From a virus, in IMG/VR virus record IMGVR_UViG_3300033388_007160, positions 22,020 to 86,019 of that record: a DNA stretch of 64,000 bases. One strand, 5' to 3'. Shown here one piece after another: positions 15,581 through 55,086 of this stretch. Position 1 is the first letter of the stretch, and every line of letters starts with the position of its first letter. The notes beneath the pieces were generated by a model. The model saw nothing but the letters and a program-made list of their open reading frames with translations, did no database searches and had not been told where the DNA came from. The translations under genes were made by a program, and so were the position numbers.

Positions 15581-15817
15581 ATGGCACTAAAGCAGCGGCA
15601 AAACCAAGTTTGTGCCTTAGACTTCGCGGATATACTTGGTTCGATAGGCTATCTCGTGCTGTATGCGTCGGGAGACGATGGTGACAGGTTGTTTGTGTTT
15701 CAGCGGCCCAACCGGCCTCAAGATGAGCTTGCGCCGCTTTGTATTCTTGAGATTGATGAAGAGGGGAACATCAGTGCCGATGACATTGAAGCTTCGCTCA
15801 ACTGGAAGCTGCGATAA
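15581..15817 (+). CDS. Hypothetical protein
   Basis: 78-aa ORF followed by a GC-rich hairpin. Confidence 0.55.
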   Translation: MALKQRQNQVCALDFADILGSIGYLVLYASGDDGDRLFVFQRPNRPQDELAPLCILEIDEEGNISADDIEASLNWKLR

Positions 15818-39088: not shown

Positions 39089-39569
39089 AATTGTTGACCC
39101 CCAGCTTAAAGATTTCGTATTCCATTGTCTGCGCCATGCCCCTCCGGCCTTCTGGGAAATGCCCGCTTCCGCTACCGGCAGGCACCATCCGTCCGACGAA
39201 AGAGGCCCCGGTGGCCTGCTGATACACATCCTTCGCCTTCTCAGTGTGACAGATGACGCCATGCAATGGCTGAAGGCTGCCGGATATTCCGAACGCAAAT
39301 GGCGGGATTGGTGGATAGCAACCTCGATTCTTCACGACTTGCTCAGGGCCACGGAAAGATACAAGAAGCGCCACGGCCCGGAAATGGCAAAACGCATAGA
39401 AGCACGCCTCGACAGCCGTTACAGGCAACTTGCCGATGCCATCCGTAGGCATGAAGGTCCCTGGTCTGATGGCGGCCCCTCTACACGCAACTGGTTTGGC
39501 CTTCTCTTCCATATGGCAGACTTCTGGTTAACGCGAGAAAAGGTAAAGACCGACATCGAGGAAAAATAA
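39012..39569 (+). CDS. HD-domain phosphohydrolase
   Basis: PAS..GRHH, GGLLIH, LHD, HEGPW and HMAD motifs. Confidence 0.85.
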   Translation: MPDIAQTAASDRLRTLKQRILNWANEIVDPQLKDFVFHCLRHAPPAFWEMPASATGRHHPSDERGPGGLLIHILRLLSVTDDAMQWLKAAGYSERKWRDWWIATSILHDLLRATERYKKRHGPEMAKRIEARLDSRYRQLADAIRRHEGPWSDGGPSTRNWFGLLFHMADFWLTREKVKTDIEEK

Positions 39570-39594
39570 AAGCCCCACCCTTCGGGTGGGGCTT
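39562..39594 (-). terminator. Intrinsic terminator, minus strand
   Basis: 10-bp stem AGCCCCACCC/GGGTGGGGCT followed by a U-rich tract on the minus strand. Confidence 0.8.
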
Positions 39595-39987
39595 GAGCTT
39601 GAGAGGATGCCGCCTCGGTGCCTGTCCTCCGCGTTAGCCAGGCCTCGCTCGGGCTTTGACCGACGCCATCCTCCAGACGAGGTTGGGATGGGCTGCGATA
39701 ACGCAGCCCCGGTGGACTCGCTAACGCGAGTGACCACCGAAATATTCCAGCGGGCAGGCCTATGACGCGAGACGGGAAGGGGGCAGGCATAAAGCCTGTG
39801 CGAGGGGACACACGCGGGCGGCGGTGCCTGCTGCCACTAGTATATTGACTGGCTAGCGATCGGGCGCTTGGCCACGCGTCTCACGGATTGGCCGAGCATC
39901 GCCCAAGAAGCTATTGAAGCTGGGCTTTAACTCCCTTTGCATTTGTCGCCAAAGGCCTGCCCGCCTTTACTCGCTGTCAGAGTTCGC
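39595..39987. ncRNA. ~400-nt highly structured non-coding element of unknown class
   Basis: No credible ORF; many hairpins; 12-bp long-range helix 39750-61/39953-64; bounded by a minus-strand promoter and terminator. Confidence 0.65.
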
Positions 39988-39993
39988 ACGAAC

Positions 39994-40022
39994 AGTATAC
40001 CCACAATGCTACTCATTCAAAC
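39994..40022 (-). promoter_or_regulatory. Repeated phage promoter motif
   Basis: GTTTGA-N14-GGGTATACT. Confidence 0.65.
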
Positions 40023-41555
40023 CTGTCGCATTGATACTTGCTGGCCCAAGGCTGTATACGTGCGCCATCTTTCTTCGCTGTGCTTTTCAAGGACGCCATC
40101 GTCCTCGTCCCAGAAATCTATAACTTGGGCAAAGGGCTTGCCGGGGGCTATGCGAAGGCTTCGGCCAAGGCGTTGCTGTTGACGGCCATGAGCCTTGCCC
40201 CCAGCGGCCATAATCAGCACGTCAATCGTCGGCACGTTGAACCCCAAGTCCACCACTGGCGTGCCAATCAGGATTTTGTTGGTGGCAATGAATTCGTCTT
40301 TGATTTCTTGGGCCTTCTGGGCGGACATGCCGCCGTGCAAGAAGAGACAATTTTCACGTCCCAGATATTCATCCATCAGCAGGTTGGCATGTTCTTCCCA
40401 ATTGACGATGATAAGCACCTTCCGGCCTTTGCTTTGGTGGTAGAGGGCTTCGGTTGCAATGTGGAGGTTTCTTTCTGTGTTGTAGGCGATGCCATACCGA
40501 TACTTCTCAGCCCAAGAACCTGCTACGGGCAGGCACCGGACTGGTATGAATTCCACACGGGCTTCGGATAAATAACCTTCGTCCTGGAGTTCACGTGTGG
40601 GCTTTCGGGCCAGGATAGGGCCGGTTACAGCATGTAGCTTCATCGTTTCCCCATAGCCTTCTTCGCGGCTGGCCGTGGCCGTTTGGCCGAATCGATAGTA
40701 AGCGTCTACAGTCATCAGGTAATCAAACCACGTATCGGCAGCGGATTTGTGATGTTCGTCCACGATAATCAAGTCCACTTCGCGGGCCAGTTTGCCTCCA
40801 CGTGCAGGGTCTCTGGCCCATCCTTCGTCAAAGATGGCAAGTGTTACCCAGTCTGGCTCGAATTTGCCTTTCGCGATAATGCCCAGTGGCACGTCGGGGC
40901 AGTATTCGGGCCAGCGGGATTTGAATTCATTGAAAATCGGTGTTGTGGGAACGATTATCAGGGTTCGCAGCCCCAAACGAGCAATAATCTCGATGGCAAT
41001 TTCCGTCTTGCCGCCGCCTGTTGCCACTTCAATAATGCCCCGCTCAGCTTCAATGGCAGCCTGCACGATTTCTTCTTGGTAATCGCGTAGCCTGATAGTC
41101 GTCCGCCAGGGGCGAGCTTCGCCAGGTTTGCGTCTTTCATCTACGATTTCAGCGCCTTGGGTAAGATGGGAGATATAAAAGAGCAGCCCTGTGGGCACAG
41201 CCTTCCGCCGCCGGTCGAGAAAATGTATCCGGTGATCCCACTGGCAACGCCAGCAGTCTGGAAACAGGCTGGCCGCTTCTTCATGGCTGAATTTCTTGCG
41301 TCGTTTGACTTTCTGAATGAGCCTCTGGCATTGCCGTCGCAACCACCGAACGCTATCATAGCGGGCTTCAAGGCCGGGCCGTCCGGCCAGTCGGGCTTCT
41401 TCATCCATTAGTTCTTGCAAATGCTTCTCAAGGTGCCGTGCCAGAATCCACTTCGCATTAGGAATTTCAAAAGACAGACATTCATCAATGGCTCTGAGTT
41501 CTTCGTCAGTGGCTTCCTCAATTTGCGTCCAAGTGTTGGATATCCTCAGCCTCAA
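40017..41555 (-). CDS. Superfamily 2 DNA helicase (UvsW/XPB-like)
   Basis: LRDYQ, ATGGGKT, DEHH, TAT and QRLGRSLR motifs. Confidence 0.92.
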   Translation of the reverse strand: MRLRISNTWTQIEEATDEELRAIDECLSFEIPNAKWILARHLEKHLQELMDEEARLAGRPGLEARYDSVRWLRRQCQRLIQKVKRRKKFSHEEAASLFPDCWRCQWDHRIHFLDRRRKAVPTGLLFYISHLTQGAEIVDERRKPGEARPWRTTIRLRDYQEEIVQAAIEAERGIIEVATGGGKTEIAIEIIARLGLRTLIIVPTTPIFNEFKSRWPEYCPDVPLGIIAKGKFEPDWVTLAIFDEGWARDPARGGKLAREVDLIIVDEHHKSAADTWFDYLMTVDAYYRFGQTATASREEGYGETMKLHAVTGPILARKPTRELQDEGYLSEARVEFIPVRCLPVAGSWAEKYRYGIAYNTERNLHIATEALYHQSKGRKVLIIVNWEEHANLLMDEYLGRENCLFLHGGMSAQKAQEIKDEFIATNKILIGTPVVDLGFNVPTIDVLIMAAGGKAHGRQQQRLGRSLRIAPGKPFAQVIDFWDEDDGVLEKHSEERWRTYTALGQQVSMRQV

Positions 41556-45778: not shown

Positions 45779-45802
45779 GGGCTATACCCCCTTCCCGTGC
45801 TC

Positions 45803-46236: not shown

Positions 46237-46265
46237 AGTATACCGCGCTAACGCCTCGCCCAAAC
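46237..46265 (-). promoter_or_regulatory. Repeated phage promoter motif
   Basis: GTTTGG-N14-CGGTATACT. Confidence 0.55.
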
Positions 46266-46274
46266 ATCAAATTC

Positions 46275-46356
46275 TGGTGGACGCGCCCGGGAATCGAACC
46301 CGGGTACCAAGCGCTGCACACCGGCCTTAGCGCTTGGTCGAACCTATTCTGCGCCC
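46275..46356 (-). ncRNA. Mini tmRNA-like RNA, tRNA-like domain only (copy 1)
   Basis: GGGCGC acceptor stem with G3.U70; GGTTCGAC D-region; 9-bp helix; TTCGATT T-loop; ACCA end; no anticodon arm. Confidence 0.75.
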
Positions 46357-47561: not shown

Positions 47562-47652
47562 GTTATATCACTTCCCTTCCCGACGCTTTGGCTCCACCGC
47601 CCAGCGCGATGAAGCCAAGGCGTTGGGCCGGAGGAGCCCGGCCCTAGCGCCA

Positions 47653-47871
47653 CTACACCTCGCTGAACCGCATCTCTACGGTTACAATCTCCATGTCCTT
47701 CGCCCGCTGCTTCAGTTCTTCTTCCACCTGTTCCCACTCGCCTTGCGCCCACACCTGCCCCTGCGGGCCAAGAAGAACCCAGCTAAGCTCTCCGTCTATC
47801 ACCTGCGCCATAACGCAACAGCCCAGTGCAGCGCAGGCCAAGTCGAGCCACTTCTCTTGTTCCCAAGTCAT
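47653..47871 (-). CDS. Hypothetical early protein
   Basis: GGGAAGGGGG RBS. Confidence 0.6.
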   Translation of the reverse strand: MTWEQEKWLDLACAALGCCVMAQVIDGELSWVLLGPQGQVWAQGEWEQVEEELKQRAKDMEIVTVEMRFSEV

Positions 47872-47961
47872 CGCTGGTACCCCCTTCCCGACGCTCTCGC
47901 CCCACCCTCGCGGATGGGGCCAGGGCGTCGGGCCGGGCCGAAGCCCCGACGCCTCAGACTG

Positions 47962-49019: not shown

Positions 49020-49114
49020 TGCGCTACCCCCTTCCGTCTTCGGCGCTCCTGCCCCACCTTGGCGATGGGGCGGGATCGCCGGGCCGCCGCGAAGGCGGCC
49101 TTGGGCGATGAGCA

Positions 49115-49342
49115 TTAGGCTGTGGCAGCCCAAAGGTTCAAGGCGCTCAGTAGCTGCTCAAATACTTTCACCACCTTGCCTCGACCTGCTGGGAGCCGCA
49201 ACACATACTCTTCTTTTTCGGCGTCATAGTCGAGTTCGTAACCTGCTGCTTCTACTGCTCGGTCGAGGATATAGATATACGGCAGAAGAAATTCCTCCCA
49301 GTAGGTCACGTTGCCTTGCTCTACACGTAGACGCGCTTTCAT
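49115..49342 (-). CDS. First gene of the leftward operon, hypothetical
   Basis: GGGAAGGGGG RBS; promoter at 49381-49409. Confidence 0.65.
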   Translation of the reverse strand: MKARLRVEQGNVTYWEEFLLPYIYILDRAVEAAGYELDYDAEKEEYVLRLPAGRGKVVKVFEQLLSALNLWAATA

Positions 49343-49380
49343 GCTCGTTCCCCCTTCCCTGTCTCGCGCTTTCCACTCTC

Positions 49381-49409
49381 ATTATACCCACTCGCGCCGG
49401 GTGCTAAAC
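49381..49409 (-). promoter_or_regulatory. Repeated phage promoter motif, leftward operon
   Basis: GTTTAG-N14-GGGTATAAT. Confidence 0.7.
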
Positions 49410-49417
49410 ATGTTTTG

Positions 49418-49928
49418 TGTAACAACCTTGTTACATCCGGCGCCCGGCGCCAGTAATGCGCCTGCGCTCACCCAAAGCGCCGCTGCGGCGCAGCGCCTTT
49501 AGCGGCTTGTCACAATTGCCAAGCATTCGCAACAGCCAAGACTGTGTTACTGCAAATCGTGGGCAATAACGCAGGCCAAGCAGCTACTGCTGATTTGGGC
49601 CAAGCCCGGCCCAAGGCCTGAAGCTTAGCCTTGGACCTTCAGGCCTGGCCTTCGGCCTAGCCTTTATCGGCCTCCATTATATATATGTGCCAGTCGGGCC
49701 GGATTTAAACCTGCTGGGCCAGAAAATTTTCGGCTTTTCGGGCCGGGGCCTTGGGCCTGGCTTGAGGCGGGCCAGTCGGGCTGAGGCAGCCGGGCCGAGC
49801 CATATTGGGCTTGGCTGGCCAGGCCGAGCCAGCAAAGGCCGGGGCAATCGGGCTTGGGCCGGATCGGGCCGGGGCCTTCGGGCCGGATTAGGCCGAAGGC
49901 CGGGGCCGGATGTAACAACATGTTTACA
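49418..49928. repeat. Inverted repeats/operator-like palindromes enclosing a GGCC-saturated block
   Basis: TTGTTACATCCGGC (49428-41) is the reverse complement of 49905-18; palindrome TGTAACAAccTTGTTACA at 49418-35. Confidence 0.75.
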
Positions 49929-49964
49929 TCAGCATGTTTCGGGCCGGTTTAGGGTAGACTGGTC

Positions 49965-49994
49965 TTGACAGCCATTAGCGTGATATGCTATACT
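49965..49994 (+). promoter_or_regulatory. sigma70-type promoter
   Basis: TTGACA-N18-TATACT with extended TG. Confidence 0.7.
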
Positions 49995-50281: not shown

Positions 50282-50908
50282 ATGTCAGTAACCTTTGACG
50301 TATGGCCTTGGGCCGACAAGCTAATGCTTCAATTGGGCTTGGCCAGCCAGGCCAAACTGGTCAGGCTGGCCAGGTGGGCCAGCCAGGCCTTGAAAGCCAA
50401 GCCCAAGTATGAGTATCGGGCCTATAAAGCTGATATCAAGGCCGAAGGCCCGGCCTTCAAGCTTGTGTGGATGGAAAAGCCTTCCGGGCCTTGCTGGCTT
50501 ATCTGGGCCAAGCCCAAGCAAGCTTGGGCCTGGCCTATGTGGACTGAAGGCTGCATCATCGAGCGTCAAGGCCGCTTGTGGCTGCAGGCCCGCGGGCTTG
50601 GCATGATTGAGATTGATAGCATAAGCCAAGCTATTCATATCCTTCTGGCCCGGCCCGGCCTTGGGCCTGCTGAGGCCCCGGCCTACAAGGCCGAGCCAGA
50701 TAACGGCAGGCCGGATCGGGCCATTGTCACAACCCTTGAAGGCAGCCAGATAACCTACTACTACAAGCCCGAACCGGGCTACTGGGCCAGGCAGACTTTG
50801 CAAGACAAGGCCCTGGCCCGAGCCTGGCCCAAGGTAGTTTCATCATATCGGGCTTTGATGAGGCTTGCCAGGGAAAAGCAGGCCCAAGTCAAGCGGGCCT
50901 TTGACTAA
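50282..50908 (+). CDS. Hypothetical protein with GGCC-rich coding sequence
   Basis: GGAGGTGAG RBS; followed by a terminator. Confidence 0.6.
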   Translation: MSVTFDVWPWADKLMLQLGLASQAKLVRLARWASQALKAKPKYEYRAYKADIKAEGPAFKLVWMEKPSGPCWLIWAKPKQAWAWPMWTEGCIIERQGRLWLQARGLGMIEIDSISQAIHILLARPGLGPAEAPAYKAEPDNGRPDRAIVTTLEGSQITYYYKPEPGYWARQTLQDKALARAWPKVVSSYRALMRLAREKQAQVKRAFD

Positions 50909-51314: not shown

Positions 51315-51365
51315 CCCTAGCTACCTATAGGATAAAACTACGTTTTATCCTATAGGTAGCTAGGG
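51315..51365. repeat. Perfect 24-bp inverted repeat with 3-nt centre
   Basis: CCCTAGCTACCTATAGGATAAAAC-TAC-GTTTTATCCTATAGGTAGCTAGGG. Confidence 0.95.
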
Positions 51366-52537: not shown

Positions 52538-52612
52538 TGGTGGCCCCGACGGGATTCGAACCCGTGTTACCGCCTTGAAAGAGCGGCGTCCTAGCCACTA
52601 GACGACAGGGCC
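52538..52612 (-). tRNA. tRNA-Glu (UUC)
   Basis: Full cloverleaf; anticodon loop CTTTCAA; GGTTCGAATCC; encoded CCA. Confidence 0.95.
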
Positions 52613-52621
52613 ACCATCGGC

Positions 52622-54124
52622 TTATTCGAGGACAGGCCCTTCTGGCCCTTCCCAGTTTTCGATCACATCAACCAACTTATCCCAAACGAGGATGACCTTG
52701 AAGATGTTATCATTGAAGCCGCCGATGTCAAGAATGCGTGGATTCTGCGGCAGGTCGCTGGTGCCGTATGGGGCCAAGCAGACATTGACTACCCGAAGCT
52801 CCGGATTAAGGCCCAGAAGCTTTTTGATAGCCTCCCCCGCGTAGCCCCAGCTACCTGGCAACCAGGACTGCTCATCCGTAAGTATCACCACATAGTCAAG
52901 CTGGTTAGCATAGGCTGCTACCTTCTCAATGGCCTCGGCCAAATTGGTGCCACCGCCATCAACGTAAATCTGCTTGAAGATGTCATATGTTCGACTGGAG
53001 CGGCTGACTTTGCATTGTTGGGCCCCAGTGCCATAGCTGATTATCACGCCATTCTGAGCCTTCTTGAACGCTGCAGCAGCAAACAATCGGGCCACATCAA
53101 CCCGGCTGACCATTGACCTTGCACTCAAGAAGCCCAACATGCTGCCGCTCGTATCCACAAGCACACCTACACGGCCCAGTGAAGGCACATTGTCTGTTGC
53201 TATTTCTATGGCTTCAATCAGGGCGTCTTCGGCTTCCTGCTTGGCAGCCAAACTGATGTTCTCGTCTTCCAACTGCTGCACGCTTGCCAAGGCAGCCAGG
53301 AAACGGAACGGCATAATCTTGGGATGTCGGGCTGCTGCCAGAACTTTTTCTCTGTCAATTGGCACATTATGTTTAAGCAAGTTGCGCAGGTTGCGAATAT
53401 AAGCCATGGGCGGCATGATTTCAGCAGCCCTCATCCAAGTCTCATGGTTGCTGCCATAAGCGCTGATAAGAGATTCCCAAGTGGTGGCCTTGCCTTCCGC
53501 GTGGGCCTTAATCTCCTCAGGCGTATCTTCACCAACCTTGCCGGTTACAATCCACCTGAATGCGGCGGCCTGGGCTGCATCCTTGGGCTTCGGGTGAATA
53601 ACGTTCAGCACATCAACAAGGCTCCATTCGCGAGTTTTGCCACGATATTTGATAATCTCATACGGCGTCAAAGCTTGTAGCCTCTTGGCAATTGCTCTTC
53701 GCAGGGCCATAGGGATGGGGCCGCCATATACCTCTTTATATATAGCCAGTACTTCAGCGGGTTCATCGGCCCGTGCCATGATAACCGGCCCCCACTTGGC
53801 AACCCATGGCTTAGGTGCACATTCGTGGACTGGGTGCCCTGCCATCACAGCCAGCAAGAACTGCGGGGCCGTCCTCATGCCAAGTTCATGACGCAGCCAT
53901 GCAGCCAGCTTCAGCACGAATTCGGGGTCTTTGGTCCCAACTTCCAGCGCCAGATTCTTGATGGCCTCAGTGACTTCATGTTTGGTTGCGTAGAAGGTAT
54001 CTTCAAAGAAGTGTGTGGCACACCGCAGTGCCAGCTCCAGCTTGGGTGGATACTTGTAGGCCGGAGCCCCTTCATAGTTGACTGTCTTGCCTGCAGCCCG
54101 CTTAGGCTTGTTGAACTTAGCCAT
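52622..54124 (-). CDS. Ro60/Rsr TROVE-vWA RNA-binding protein
   Basis: NYEGAPAY; FVLKLAAWLRHELGMR; RADE; DVLNVIHPKP; TWES.IS; MAYIRNLRN; PFRF; vWA DTSGSM, GGTN and LTDEQ. Confidence 0.93.
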   Translation of the reverse strand: MAKFNKPKRAAGKTVNYEGAPAYKYPPKLELALRCATHFFEDTFYATKHEVTEAIKNLALEVGTKDPEFVLKLAAWLRHELGMRTAPQFLLAVMAGHPVHECAPKPWVAKWGPVIMARADEPAEVLAIYKEVYGGPIPMALRRAIAKRLQALTPYEIIKYRGKTREWSLVDVLNVIHPKPKDAAQAAAFRWIVTGKVGEDTPEEIKAHAEGKATTWESLISAYGSNHETWMRAAEIMPPMAYIRNLRNLLKHNVPIDREKVLAAARHPKIMPFRFLAALASVQQLEDENISLAAKQEAEDALIEAIEIATDNVPSLGRVGVLVDTSGSMLGFLSARSMVSRVDVARLFAAAAFKKAQNGVIISYGTGAQQCKVSRSSRTYDIFKQIYVDGGGTNLAEAIEKVAAYANQLDYVVILTDEQSWLPGSWGYAGEAIKKLLGLNPELRVVNVCLAPYGTSDLPQNPRILDIGGFNDNIFKVILVWDKLVDVIENWEGPEGPVLE

Positions 54125-54422: not shown

Positions 54423-54451
54423 AGTATACCACAATGCAGGCAATTCTAAAC
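54423..54451 (-). promoter_or_regulatory. Promoter of the Y RNA-Ro60-tRNA operon
   Basis: GTTTAG-N14-TGGTATACT. Confidence 0.75.
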
Positions 54452-54465
54452 ACTGGTGAAGCAAA

Positions 54466-55086
54466 GTGCTGGCTATAATCAGTTTGGCTCTGTCTTTAGC
54501 CCAAGCGCCCAACTTGGCACTCATCTACCATACCGACAGGCTTTTCAGTTACCGCCTCGTGGCCGACCGGCCCCTGCCCAAAGGCAGCCTGCTTATCCTT
54601 ATTACTAAGAGTCCCCTGCAGGCCACCGGCCCCGCTTTGAGCTGGAAGAAAACGATTTACTTCGGCAGCATTGCTGCTTGGCGAAAGACAGACGAACGAA
54701 TCAGACGTTATTACCAGTCATTCGACGTAACGACGTGCTATCCGGCCAGGCTGGGCAAGATTTTCTGGGTTCTTGCCACACCTTCTGGTTGTTGGTGGGG
54801 CGTTTGCTGGGGGCCATGCAGTCCGATGCGGTATAATAGTTTTGGGCACGCGAGTGGGCTCGGCGGCGGGGAGAGCCGATGTGCGCCCCGCTGCACGCGG
54901 GTTCGAATCCCGCCGTGTCCACCAGCGTTCAAGTTTGTGAACAGGCCCAGCAGGGTAAACTCTCCACGAAATGAAGAGGAAGGTTCAGCGAATCATCAAT
55001 GCCCTCAACCGCTGGTGGGAACTGCGCCGGTTCCCCGAGAGGCTGAAGTATCAACGTTTTCTGGAGCGCAATCTCTTCAATCTTGA
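54466..55086 (+). CDS. Possible secreted protein; true 3' end probably before ~54830
   Basis: Signal-peptide-like N-terminus; C-terminal part overlaps an RNA gene and the next ORF. Confidence 0.3.
   Translation: MLAIISLALSLAQAPNLALIYHTDRLFSYRLVADRPLPKGSLLILITKSPLQATGPALSWKKTIYFGSIAAWRKTDERIRRYYQSFDVTTCYPARLGKIFWVLATPSGCWWGVCWGPCSPMRYNSFGHASGLGGGESRCAPRCTRVRIPPCPPAFKFVNRPSRVNSPRNEEEGSANHQCPQPLVGTAPVPREAEVSTFSGAQSLQS
54844..54924 (+). ncRNA. Mini tmRNA-like RNA, tRNA-like domain only (copy 2)
   Basis: GGGCACG/CGTGTCC acceptor with G3.U70; no D-stem; 8-bp helix; GCGGG-TTCGAAT-CCCGC; ACCA; TATAAT at 54832-37. Confidence 0.8.

Follow-up and report, generated by a model that had tools for sequence, protein, structure and literature searches.

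We describe a predicted structured non-coding RNA of ~420 nt from an uncultured phage, one segment of which is complementary to the leader, the Shine-Dalgarno (SD) site and the start codon of gene 49342, the first early gene of the leftward operon. As the best of several explanations we tentatively propose, at less than an even chance, that this minus-strand RNA would act as a c4-like antisense brake on gene 49342. All positions refer to the window, the whole stretch of 64,000 nt analysed here, which corresponds to bases 22020-86019 of the 86,019-bp IMG/VR record IMGVR_UViG_3300033388_007160.

The record carries a 114-bp terminal overlap, and ~10% of the genome (~8.8 kb) is non-coding, with 23 gaps of at least 150 nt. 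A long plus-strand gene block, which ends at 39569, and a 9.4-kb minus-strand operon, which runs from a promoter near 49386 to the helicase gene at 41555-40017, converge on a 447-nt gene-free gap (39570-40016). The early part of the leftward operon (49342 to 45395) encodes small proteins without family matches, and genes for a clamp-like protein, a nucleotidyltransferase and the helicase follow in its distal part. The minus-strand frame at 41955-42671 matches a heptose kinase/adenylyltransferase-type nucleotidyltransferase family (phrog_7878), an odd gene for a replication operon. Gene 49342 (49115-49342, minus strand) encodes a 75-aa protein without matches in Pfam or PHROG and is served by the leftward early promoter (49381-49408, minus strand), composed of TTTAGC, a 16-nt spacer and TATAAT. 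The divergent early promoter region is flanked by an operator-like palindrome, TGTAACAA-N2-TTGTTACA, and by a copy of it with one mismatch (49418-49435 and 49910-49927); a near-consensus plus-strand promoter is located at 49965-49994. GGCC-rich, repetitive sequences at 49600-49930 and 50330-50410 surround the early control region with numerous short repeats, direct as well as inverted, and a 52-nt near-perfect palindrome (96%) at 51315-51365 is the top internal repeat of the genome apart from the terminal overlap.

The gene-free gap contains an element (39766-39795, plus strand) that copies, in sense orientation, the start of gene 49342 together with its leader and SD site. The plus strand of the element reads CGCGAGACGGGAAGGGGGCAGGCATAAAGC; RNA transcribed from the minus strand across it reads antisense, GCUUUAUGCCUGCCCCCUUCCCGUCUCGCG. 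The proposed target (49368-49335, minus strand) reads CGCGAGACAGGGAAGGGGGAACGAGCATGAAAGC, lies directly 3′ of the TATAAT box and comprises the leader from about +7 onward, the private SD GGGAAGGGGG and the ATG with two codons. In a local alignment, 29 of 34 columns match, with one mismatch and four one-base gaps, one of which removes the G of the ATG from the element. The initial annotation had already aligned the two sites, with sequences and coordinates that proved exact and a match that we confirm. Both loci further have the 8-mer CGCGAGTG in common, 28 and 40 nt upstream of CGCGAGAC, and CGCGAG clusters occur at 39532, 39725 and 39766 on the plus strand and at 49368 and 49396 on the minus strand. 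Element and leader together form inverted repeats that flank the whole 9.6-kb leftward module. We rejected two further readings of this arrangement: the ends of an invertible segment or transposon, as family scans of the operon's larger ORFs revealed no recombinase, and a small plus-strand ORF behind the SD-like motif of the element, for which the nearest start is a GTG at 39799 that is 15 nt off, lies partly in a hairpin and opens a frame of 16 codons.

The SD site of gene 49342 belongs to a motif that marks a subset of early genes. GGGAAGGGGG occurs four times in the 86-kb genome (0.13 expected), at three early-gene ribosome-binding sites and in the element, and the 13-mer CGGGAAGGGGGTA, if up to two mismatches are allowed, is present eight times (1.3 expected), a number reached in none of 100 shuffles. 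The minus strand carries five copies of this type in the interval 45.7-49.4 kb; the element provides one more, with a single mismatch, at 39773-39785 on the plus strand of the gene-free gap. The five genes with the private SD (49342, 49019, 47871, 47561 and 45778) all start with ATG, about 7-12 nt from the G-run, and most other genes have AGGAGG or GGAGG sites. Both the related ribosome-binding sites at 47871, 45778, 49019 and 47561 and the prevalence of AGGAGG-type sites elsewhere had been noted before and are as described. GGGGG is able to pair with CCUCC via one G-U pair, the computed SD pairing energies of the private motif are similar to those of canonical sites, and the motif is a competent Shine-Dalgarno variant.

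For genes 49342 and 45778 the motif follows immediately 3′ of the promoter, in the latter case as CGGGAAGGGGGTA (45785-45797, minus strand) directly after TTTAGC-N16-TATACT. The other three genes have hairpins upstream that abut or overlap the motif (z -2.7 to -4.3): CGGGAAGGGGGTA of gene 47871 (47878-47890, minus strand) sits at the foot of a strong hairpin, the variant ACGGAAGGGGGTA of gene 49019 (49025-49037, minus strand) lies 3′ of a homologous one, and the variant CGGGAAGGGAAGT of gene 47561 (47574-47586, minus strand) is likewise preceded by a hairpin, which shares 81% identity with that of gene 47871 over 58 nt. These homologous hairpin-plus-SD units (47882-47937, 47574-47631 and 49041-49090, minus strand, before genes 47871, 47561 and 49019) might be processing sites or translational control elements.

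Transcription signals in the gap point to the minus strand. The predicted RNA occupies 39565-39987 on this strand, with its ends inferred from promoter and terminator. Its predicted promoter (39994-40021, minus strand) consists of TTTGAA (40021-40016), a spacer of 16 nt and TATACT (39999-39994), and the -35 box overlaps the stop codon of the helicase gene. It belongs to a class of the form TTT(A/G)NN-N16(17)-TATA(C/A)T, in many cases with GG preceding the -10 box: 8 of ~50 TATA[AC]T boxes have TTT exactly 22 nt upstream, where under one is expected by chance, an enrichment of about 10-fold. Sites of this class are found at 15631, 17980 and 21247 on the plus strand and at 54428, 52512, 49386, 46242, 45808 and 39999 on the minus strand, one of these six with a 17-nt spacer; the minus-strand sites precede a Y-like RNA, genes 52470, 49342, 46212 and 45778, and the gap. 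At the other end of the predicted RNA, an intrinsic terminator (39570-39594, minus strand) consists of an 11-bp GC-rich stem followed by UUUUAUUUUU, so that the RNA carries the U-tailed intrinsic terminator that is a trait of Hfq-type trans-acting small RNAs. It is the sole intrinsic terminator in the gap and has its U-run on the minus strand only; on the plus strand the hairpin lacks a U-run, and the upstream plus-strand operon could therefore read through. A plus-strand promoter was not seen in the gap. Since promoter and terminator both lie on the minus strand, we infer a minus-strand RNA of ~420 nt, from 39987 to about 39565, that would carry the antisense of the leader.

Several RNA-related features are located elsewhere in the window. 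A minus-strand gene at 52622-54124 encodes a Ro60-like protein (TROVE and Ro60 vWA domains) and adjoins a tRNA-Glu(UUC) at 52538-52612; promoter-like sites at 54428 and 54332 lie upstream of it in a gene-poor stretch, and the combination suggests a phage Ro60/Y-RNA module. A partial tmRNA match of 81 nt (54844-54924, plus strand; 51 bits, above the Rfam gathering score) stands behind a TATAAT box. It has a 32-nt similarity (blastn) in common with a second tRNA-like 3′ end (GGTTCGATTCC...CCACCA) at about 46264-46356 on the minus strand, which ARAGORN does not call.

The gap folds far better than its shuffles on either strand, with z-scores of -5.3 (minus) and -5.6 (plus). Folding energies of -189 (plus) versus -180 kcal/mol (minus) and G-U pair counts of 14 versus 9 slightly favour the plus strand, so the structure does not settle the strand; the slightly better plus-strand fold counts against an antisense brake. 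A perfect stem of 12 bp (39750-39761 with 39953-39964) closes a domain of ~200 nt, and the element lies immediately inside this stem, in imperfect pairing with 39932-39950. The ORFs in the gap have no family matches, which indicates that it is non-coding, and a search of the gap against Rfam gave no match, permissive thresholds returning terminator-like noise only. On these predictions the gap may represent an undescribed large phage RNA.

Next to an antisense brake, the most serious rival explanation is coincidence, which we hold to be somewhat unlikely: the G-rich strand of a helix inside a structured RNA or DNA element would by accident look like a purine-rich ribosome-binding region, and no regulation would connect the two. 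We compared the match with chance under several null models. (i) Against the 117 start regions of the genome (-45 to +12), the score observed for the gap, 39, was reached by 1 of 1948 dinucleotide shuffles (mean 26.1, sd 2.35), a nominal p of ~5e-4. (ii) Against the whole genome, the same score was reached in 6 of 120 shuffles of the gap (p ~0.05). (iii) In an all-against-all blastn comparison, the pair is outside the top 40 (E >8), with 40 other pairs outranking it. The initial annotation had named shuffling as a check on the match, and the outcome is supportive for the start regions and borderline for the whole genome. Results (ii) and (iii) favour coincidence and count against an antisense brake, as does an extrapolation from scores of 34-35, by which ~0.3 matches this strong are expected between any start region and the genome. 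In a comparison of the start regions with the whole genome, this match was the sole one with a score of at least 36 that did not connect two start regions, the chance maximum being 35.

Three observations speak against coincidence. The match falls in the ~10% of the genome that is non-coding, which makes the chance of some non-coding stretch matching a start region this well roughly 0.01-0.03 after correction for ~8.8 kb; it includes the single 10-mer found otherwise at early start sites only; and CGCGAGTG provides a second shared 8-mer upstream at both loci, with a chance of ~0.04 by rough estimate. A gap-tolerant alignment extended to include CGCGAGTG is not distinctive, with a score of 42 versus 40.25 for the start region of an unrelated gene, and the shuffle test of this cheap-gap alignment is confounded by concatenation. 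The significance of the match is thus moderate and suggestive, and the choice of null model decides it. From the sequence comparison, the resemblance of element and leader is probably not accidental.

We then calculated how well the predicted RNA would pair with its proposed target. Unrestricted duplex prediction on the full RNA was discarded, as it gave meaningless long-loop duplexes, and we used windowed hybridisation and cofolding instead. When 34-nt windows of the predicted RNA were hybridised against the 117 start regions, gene 49342 was the top partner of all, with a hybrid energy of -50.3, opening energies of 18.9 (RNA) and 12.1 (leader) and a net energy of -19.4 kcal/mol. The predicted duplex spans positions -28 to +8 and covers both SD site and AUG; the leader alone is unstructured (z = -0.2). 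With the leader of gene 49342, the cofolded full-length RNA formed 28 intermolecular pairs (ddG -19.0 kcal/mol); genes 45778, 47871, 49019 and 47561 reached ddG values of -6.2 to -10.8 kcal/mol with their leaders, and three canonical-SD controls -6.1 to -8.4 kcal/mol. The four other private-SD leaders are thus no better than controls, which argues for one target rather than many, and by these calculations the remaining carriers of the private GGGAAGGGGG site are unlikely to be genuine targets. The initial annotation had put forward a minus-strand antisense RNA with multiple targets. Of this proposal, a minus-strand transcript through the element remains likely given the promoter and the sole terminator, and pairing with the leader of gene 49342 is borne out by prediction; its multi-target part fails, with -6 to -11 kcal/mol for the other four leaders versus -6 to -8 kcal/mol for controls. 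That four of the five supposed targets behave like controls also favours coincidence.

In the predicted fold, the unpaired probability of the antisense stretch is near 0 over CCCCCUUCCC. This favours coincidence, the stretch being explained structurally as one strand of a helix. The predicted burial also counts against an antisense model, as the seeds of known regulatory RNAs are exposed. The segment is complementary to the distant leader at 29/34 positions and less so, at about 15/20, to the strand that it pairs with inside the RNA, and CCUUCC pairs with GGAAGG and not with the canonical GGAGG, so that it discriminates the private SD class.

Taken as a mechanism, the antisense brake would operate as follows. 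An early-type promoter of its own would drive synthesis of the RNA, from 39987 to about 39565; alternatively, transcription running on past the end of the 9.4-kb leftward operon would produce it. Segment 39795-39764 of the RNA would base-pair with gene 49342 over almost the full 5′ UTR, the SD site and the start codon. Ribosomes would thereby be kept off the leader, and the long duplex could serve as a substrate for RNase III. As long as the RNA is free, the imperfect helix with a leader-like 5′ arm would mask this segment, and pairing would therefore need strand displacement. One property of the system argues against it: as the promoter of the RNA is of the same class as that of its target, a simple timed shut-off is not obvious. 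A more elaborate version, to which we assign a low probability, treats the ~420-nt RNA as a riboregulator whose anti-leader is masked by an internal mimic of the leader and is freed by strand displacement or a trigger to silence gene 49342; such an RNA would also be the missing trans-acting partner of private start-site motifs similar to SAS of the mycobacteriophages.

Two other rivals retain the relationship between the loci and dispense with antisense pairing. The first, which we regard as improbable, is a shared sense-strand recognition site, where a phage or host factor binds CGCGAG(A/T)(C/G)...GGGAAGGGGG at the leader and at the gap copy. The factor would recognise RNA if it is a translational repressor or a nuclease, and DNA if the site is an operator; the plus-strand copy would serve as decoy or second operator, which corresponds to the second idea of the initial annotation. 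Such a site would fit the sense orientation of the copies with their conserved extended motif and flanks, the CGCGAG clusters at both loci, a plus strand that folds at least as well as the minus strand, and the possible read-through from the upstream operon past a terminator hairpin that lacks a U-run. It is opposed by the missing plus-strand promoter, by a gap copy that has no ATG and is buried in a helix, and by the early-promoter palindrome, which is absent from the gap; among the early proteins, none of which has a family match, there is no candidate RNA-binding regulator. Still less probable is a relic: module shuffling at the edge of the leftward operon would have left behind a duplicate of the early promoter with its leader, a pseudo-start site, since decayed, that was later taken up by the structured region. 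The colinear similarity CGCGAGTG ... CGCGAGAC-GGGAAGGGGG ... GCAT(G)AAAGC, the ATG destroyed by a one-base gap and the position of the copies as inverted repeats around the 9.6-kb module are in line with such a relic, but the similarity stops short of the coding sequence and of the -35 and -10 boxes, the extended alignment barely exceeds that of an unrelated start region, and 18 of 19 contiguous bases are kept while the flanks are unrecognisable, which is unexpected for a neutral relic.

We searched for relatives that could provide covariation. GenBank phages gave no match by DNA, and by helicase protein the best match was 33% identical. In IMG/VR, a search with the single helicase protein found nothing; a search with an alignment returned 80 loci, and the only distant relative among these (L013/G001; helicase 48%) has a different layout downstream of the helicase and carries neither the early region nor the RNA. 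The nearest helicase in a search of 5.8 billion proteins is 46-48% identical, and a metagenome protein scan for relatives gave none. Scans for the motif returned 53 matches in metagenome DNA, all unrelated chance matches including one contig with two inverted copies (L184), and 55 single matches in viral contigs, which are unrelated.

If the predicted pairing with gene 49342 is real, an uncultured phage would time or limit its first early gene by RNA alone, and there would be a concrete explanation for the lone reverse-oriented SAS copy in mycobacteriophages. If the match is a coincidence, the only result is that five early genes are marked by a private ribosome-binding motif. A predicted structured RNA of ~420 nt without Rfam family is of interest in its own right.

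Four known systems share individual traits with the arrangement described here. Early genes of phage T4 are singled out by a ribosome-binding sequence specific to their class and come under joint post-transcriptional control by two proteins, RegB and RegA, one of them a nuclease that cuts GGAG and the other a repressor. A sequence of this kind also distinguishes early genes here; in contrast to T4, no such protein was found among the early proteins. In the icaR mRNA of Staphylococcus aureus, an anti-SD in the 3′ UTR pairs with the SD in the 5′ UTR of the same monocistronic mRNA, less than 1 kb apart. Should the RNA arise by read-through, the anti-SD and the leader that it matches would similarly belong to one long transcript, the former in its 3′ UTR and the latter at its 5′ end, but the two sites are 9.4 kb apart on a polycistronic mRNA, and a separate promoter is present.

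The c4 antisense RNA of phages P1 and P7 (immI region) is complementary to the ribosome-binding region of a gene of the phage itself and represses its translation by occlusion of that region. It is about 77 nt long, is encoded in the transcription unit of its target and acts through exposed recognition segments, with two short pairing segments. The predicted RNA is, in silico, likewise complementary to a ribosome-binding site of its own phage (SD and ATG of gene 49342, 29/34). It differs in that the antisense is part of a helix within an RNA of ~420 nt, 9.6 kb from its target, in a duplex of about 29 bp versus two short segments in c4, and in a predicted fold that leaves no exposed recognition segments. 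The c4 model RF01695 gave no match at the gathering threshold in the window and none up to E = 10 in 39450-40150.

The closest published parallel to the motif layout is provided by the SAS and ESAS sequences of Cluster K mycobacteriophages. The 2011 paper (PMC3203893) describes SAS as a private, asymmetric, SD-containing 13-mer a few bases before the ATG of non-structural genes with unusually long upstream gaps, present in 11-19 copies, about half of them with imperfect inverted repeats just upstream (ESAS); in four K1 genomes (Anaya, Adephagia, Angelica and CrimD), it reports a single copy of opposite orientation away from gene starts. The function of SAS was still unknown in 2025 (PMC12699233). 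In the present phage, five private SD motifs of one orientation precede the ATG of minus-strand genes at 45.7-49.4 kb, the hairpins upstream of genes 49019, 47871 and 47561 resemble ESAS, and 39773-39785 on the plus strand of the gene-free gap represents the lone copy of opposite orientation. The SAS consensus GGGATAGGAGCCC, with up to two deviations allowed, gave two two-mismatch matches versus 1.9 expected, neither at an early start, and its absence makes the present motif an analogue and not a member. The two systems further differ in copy number (5 versus 11-19) and in host lineage, and in the present phage the reverse copy lies inside a predicted structured RNA gene that is bounded by a promoter and a terminator.
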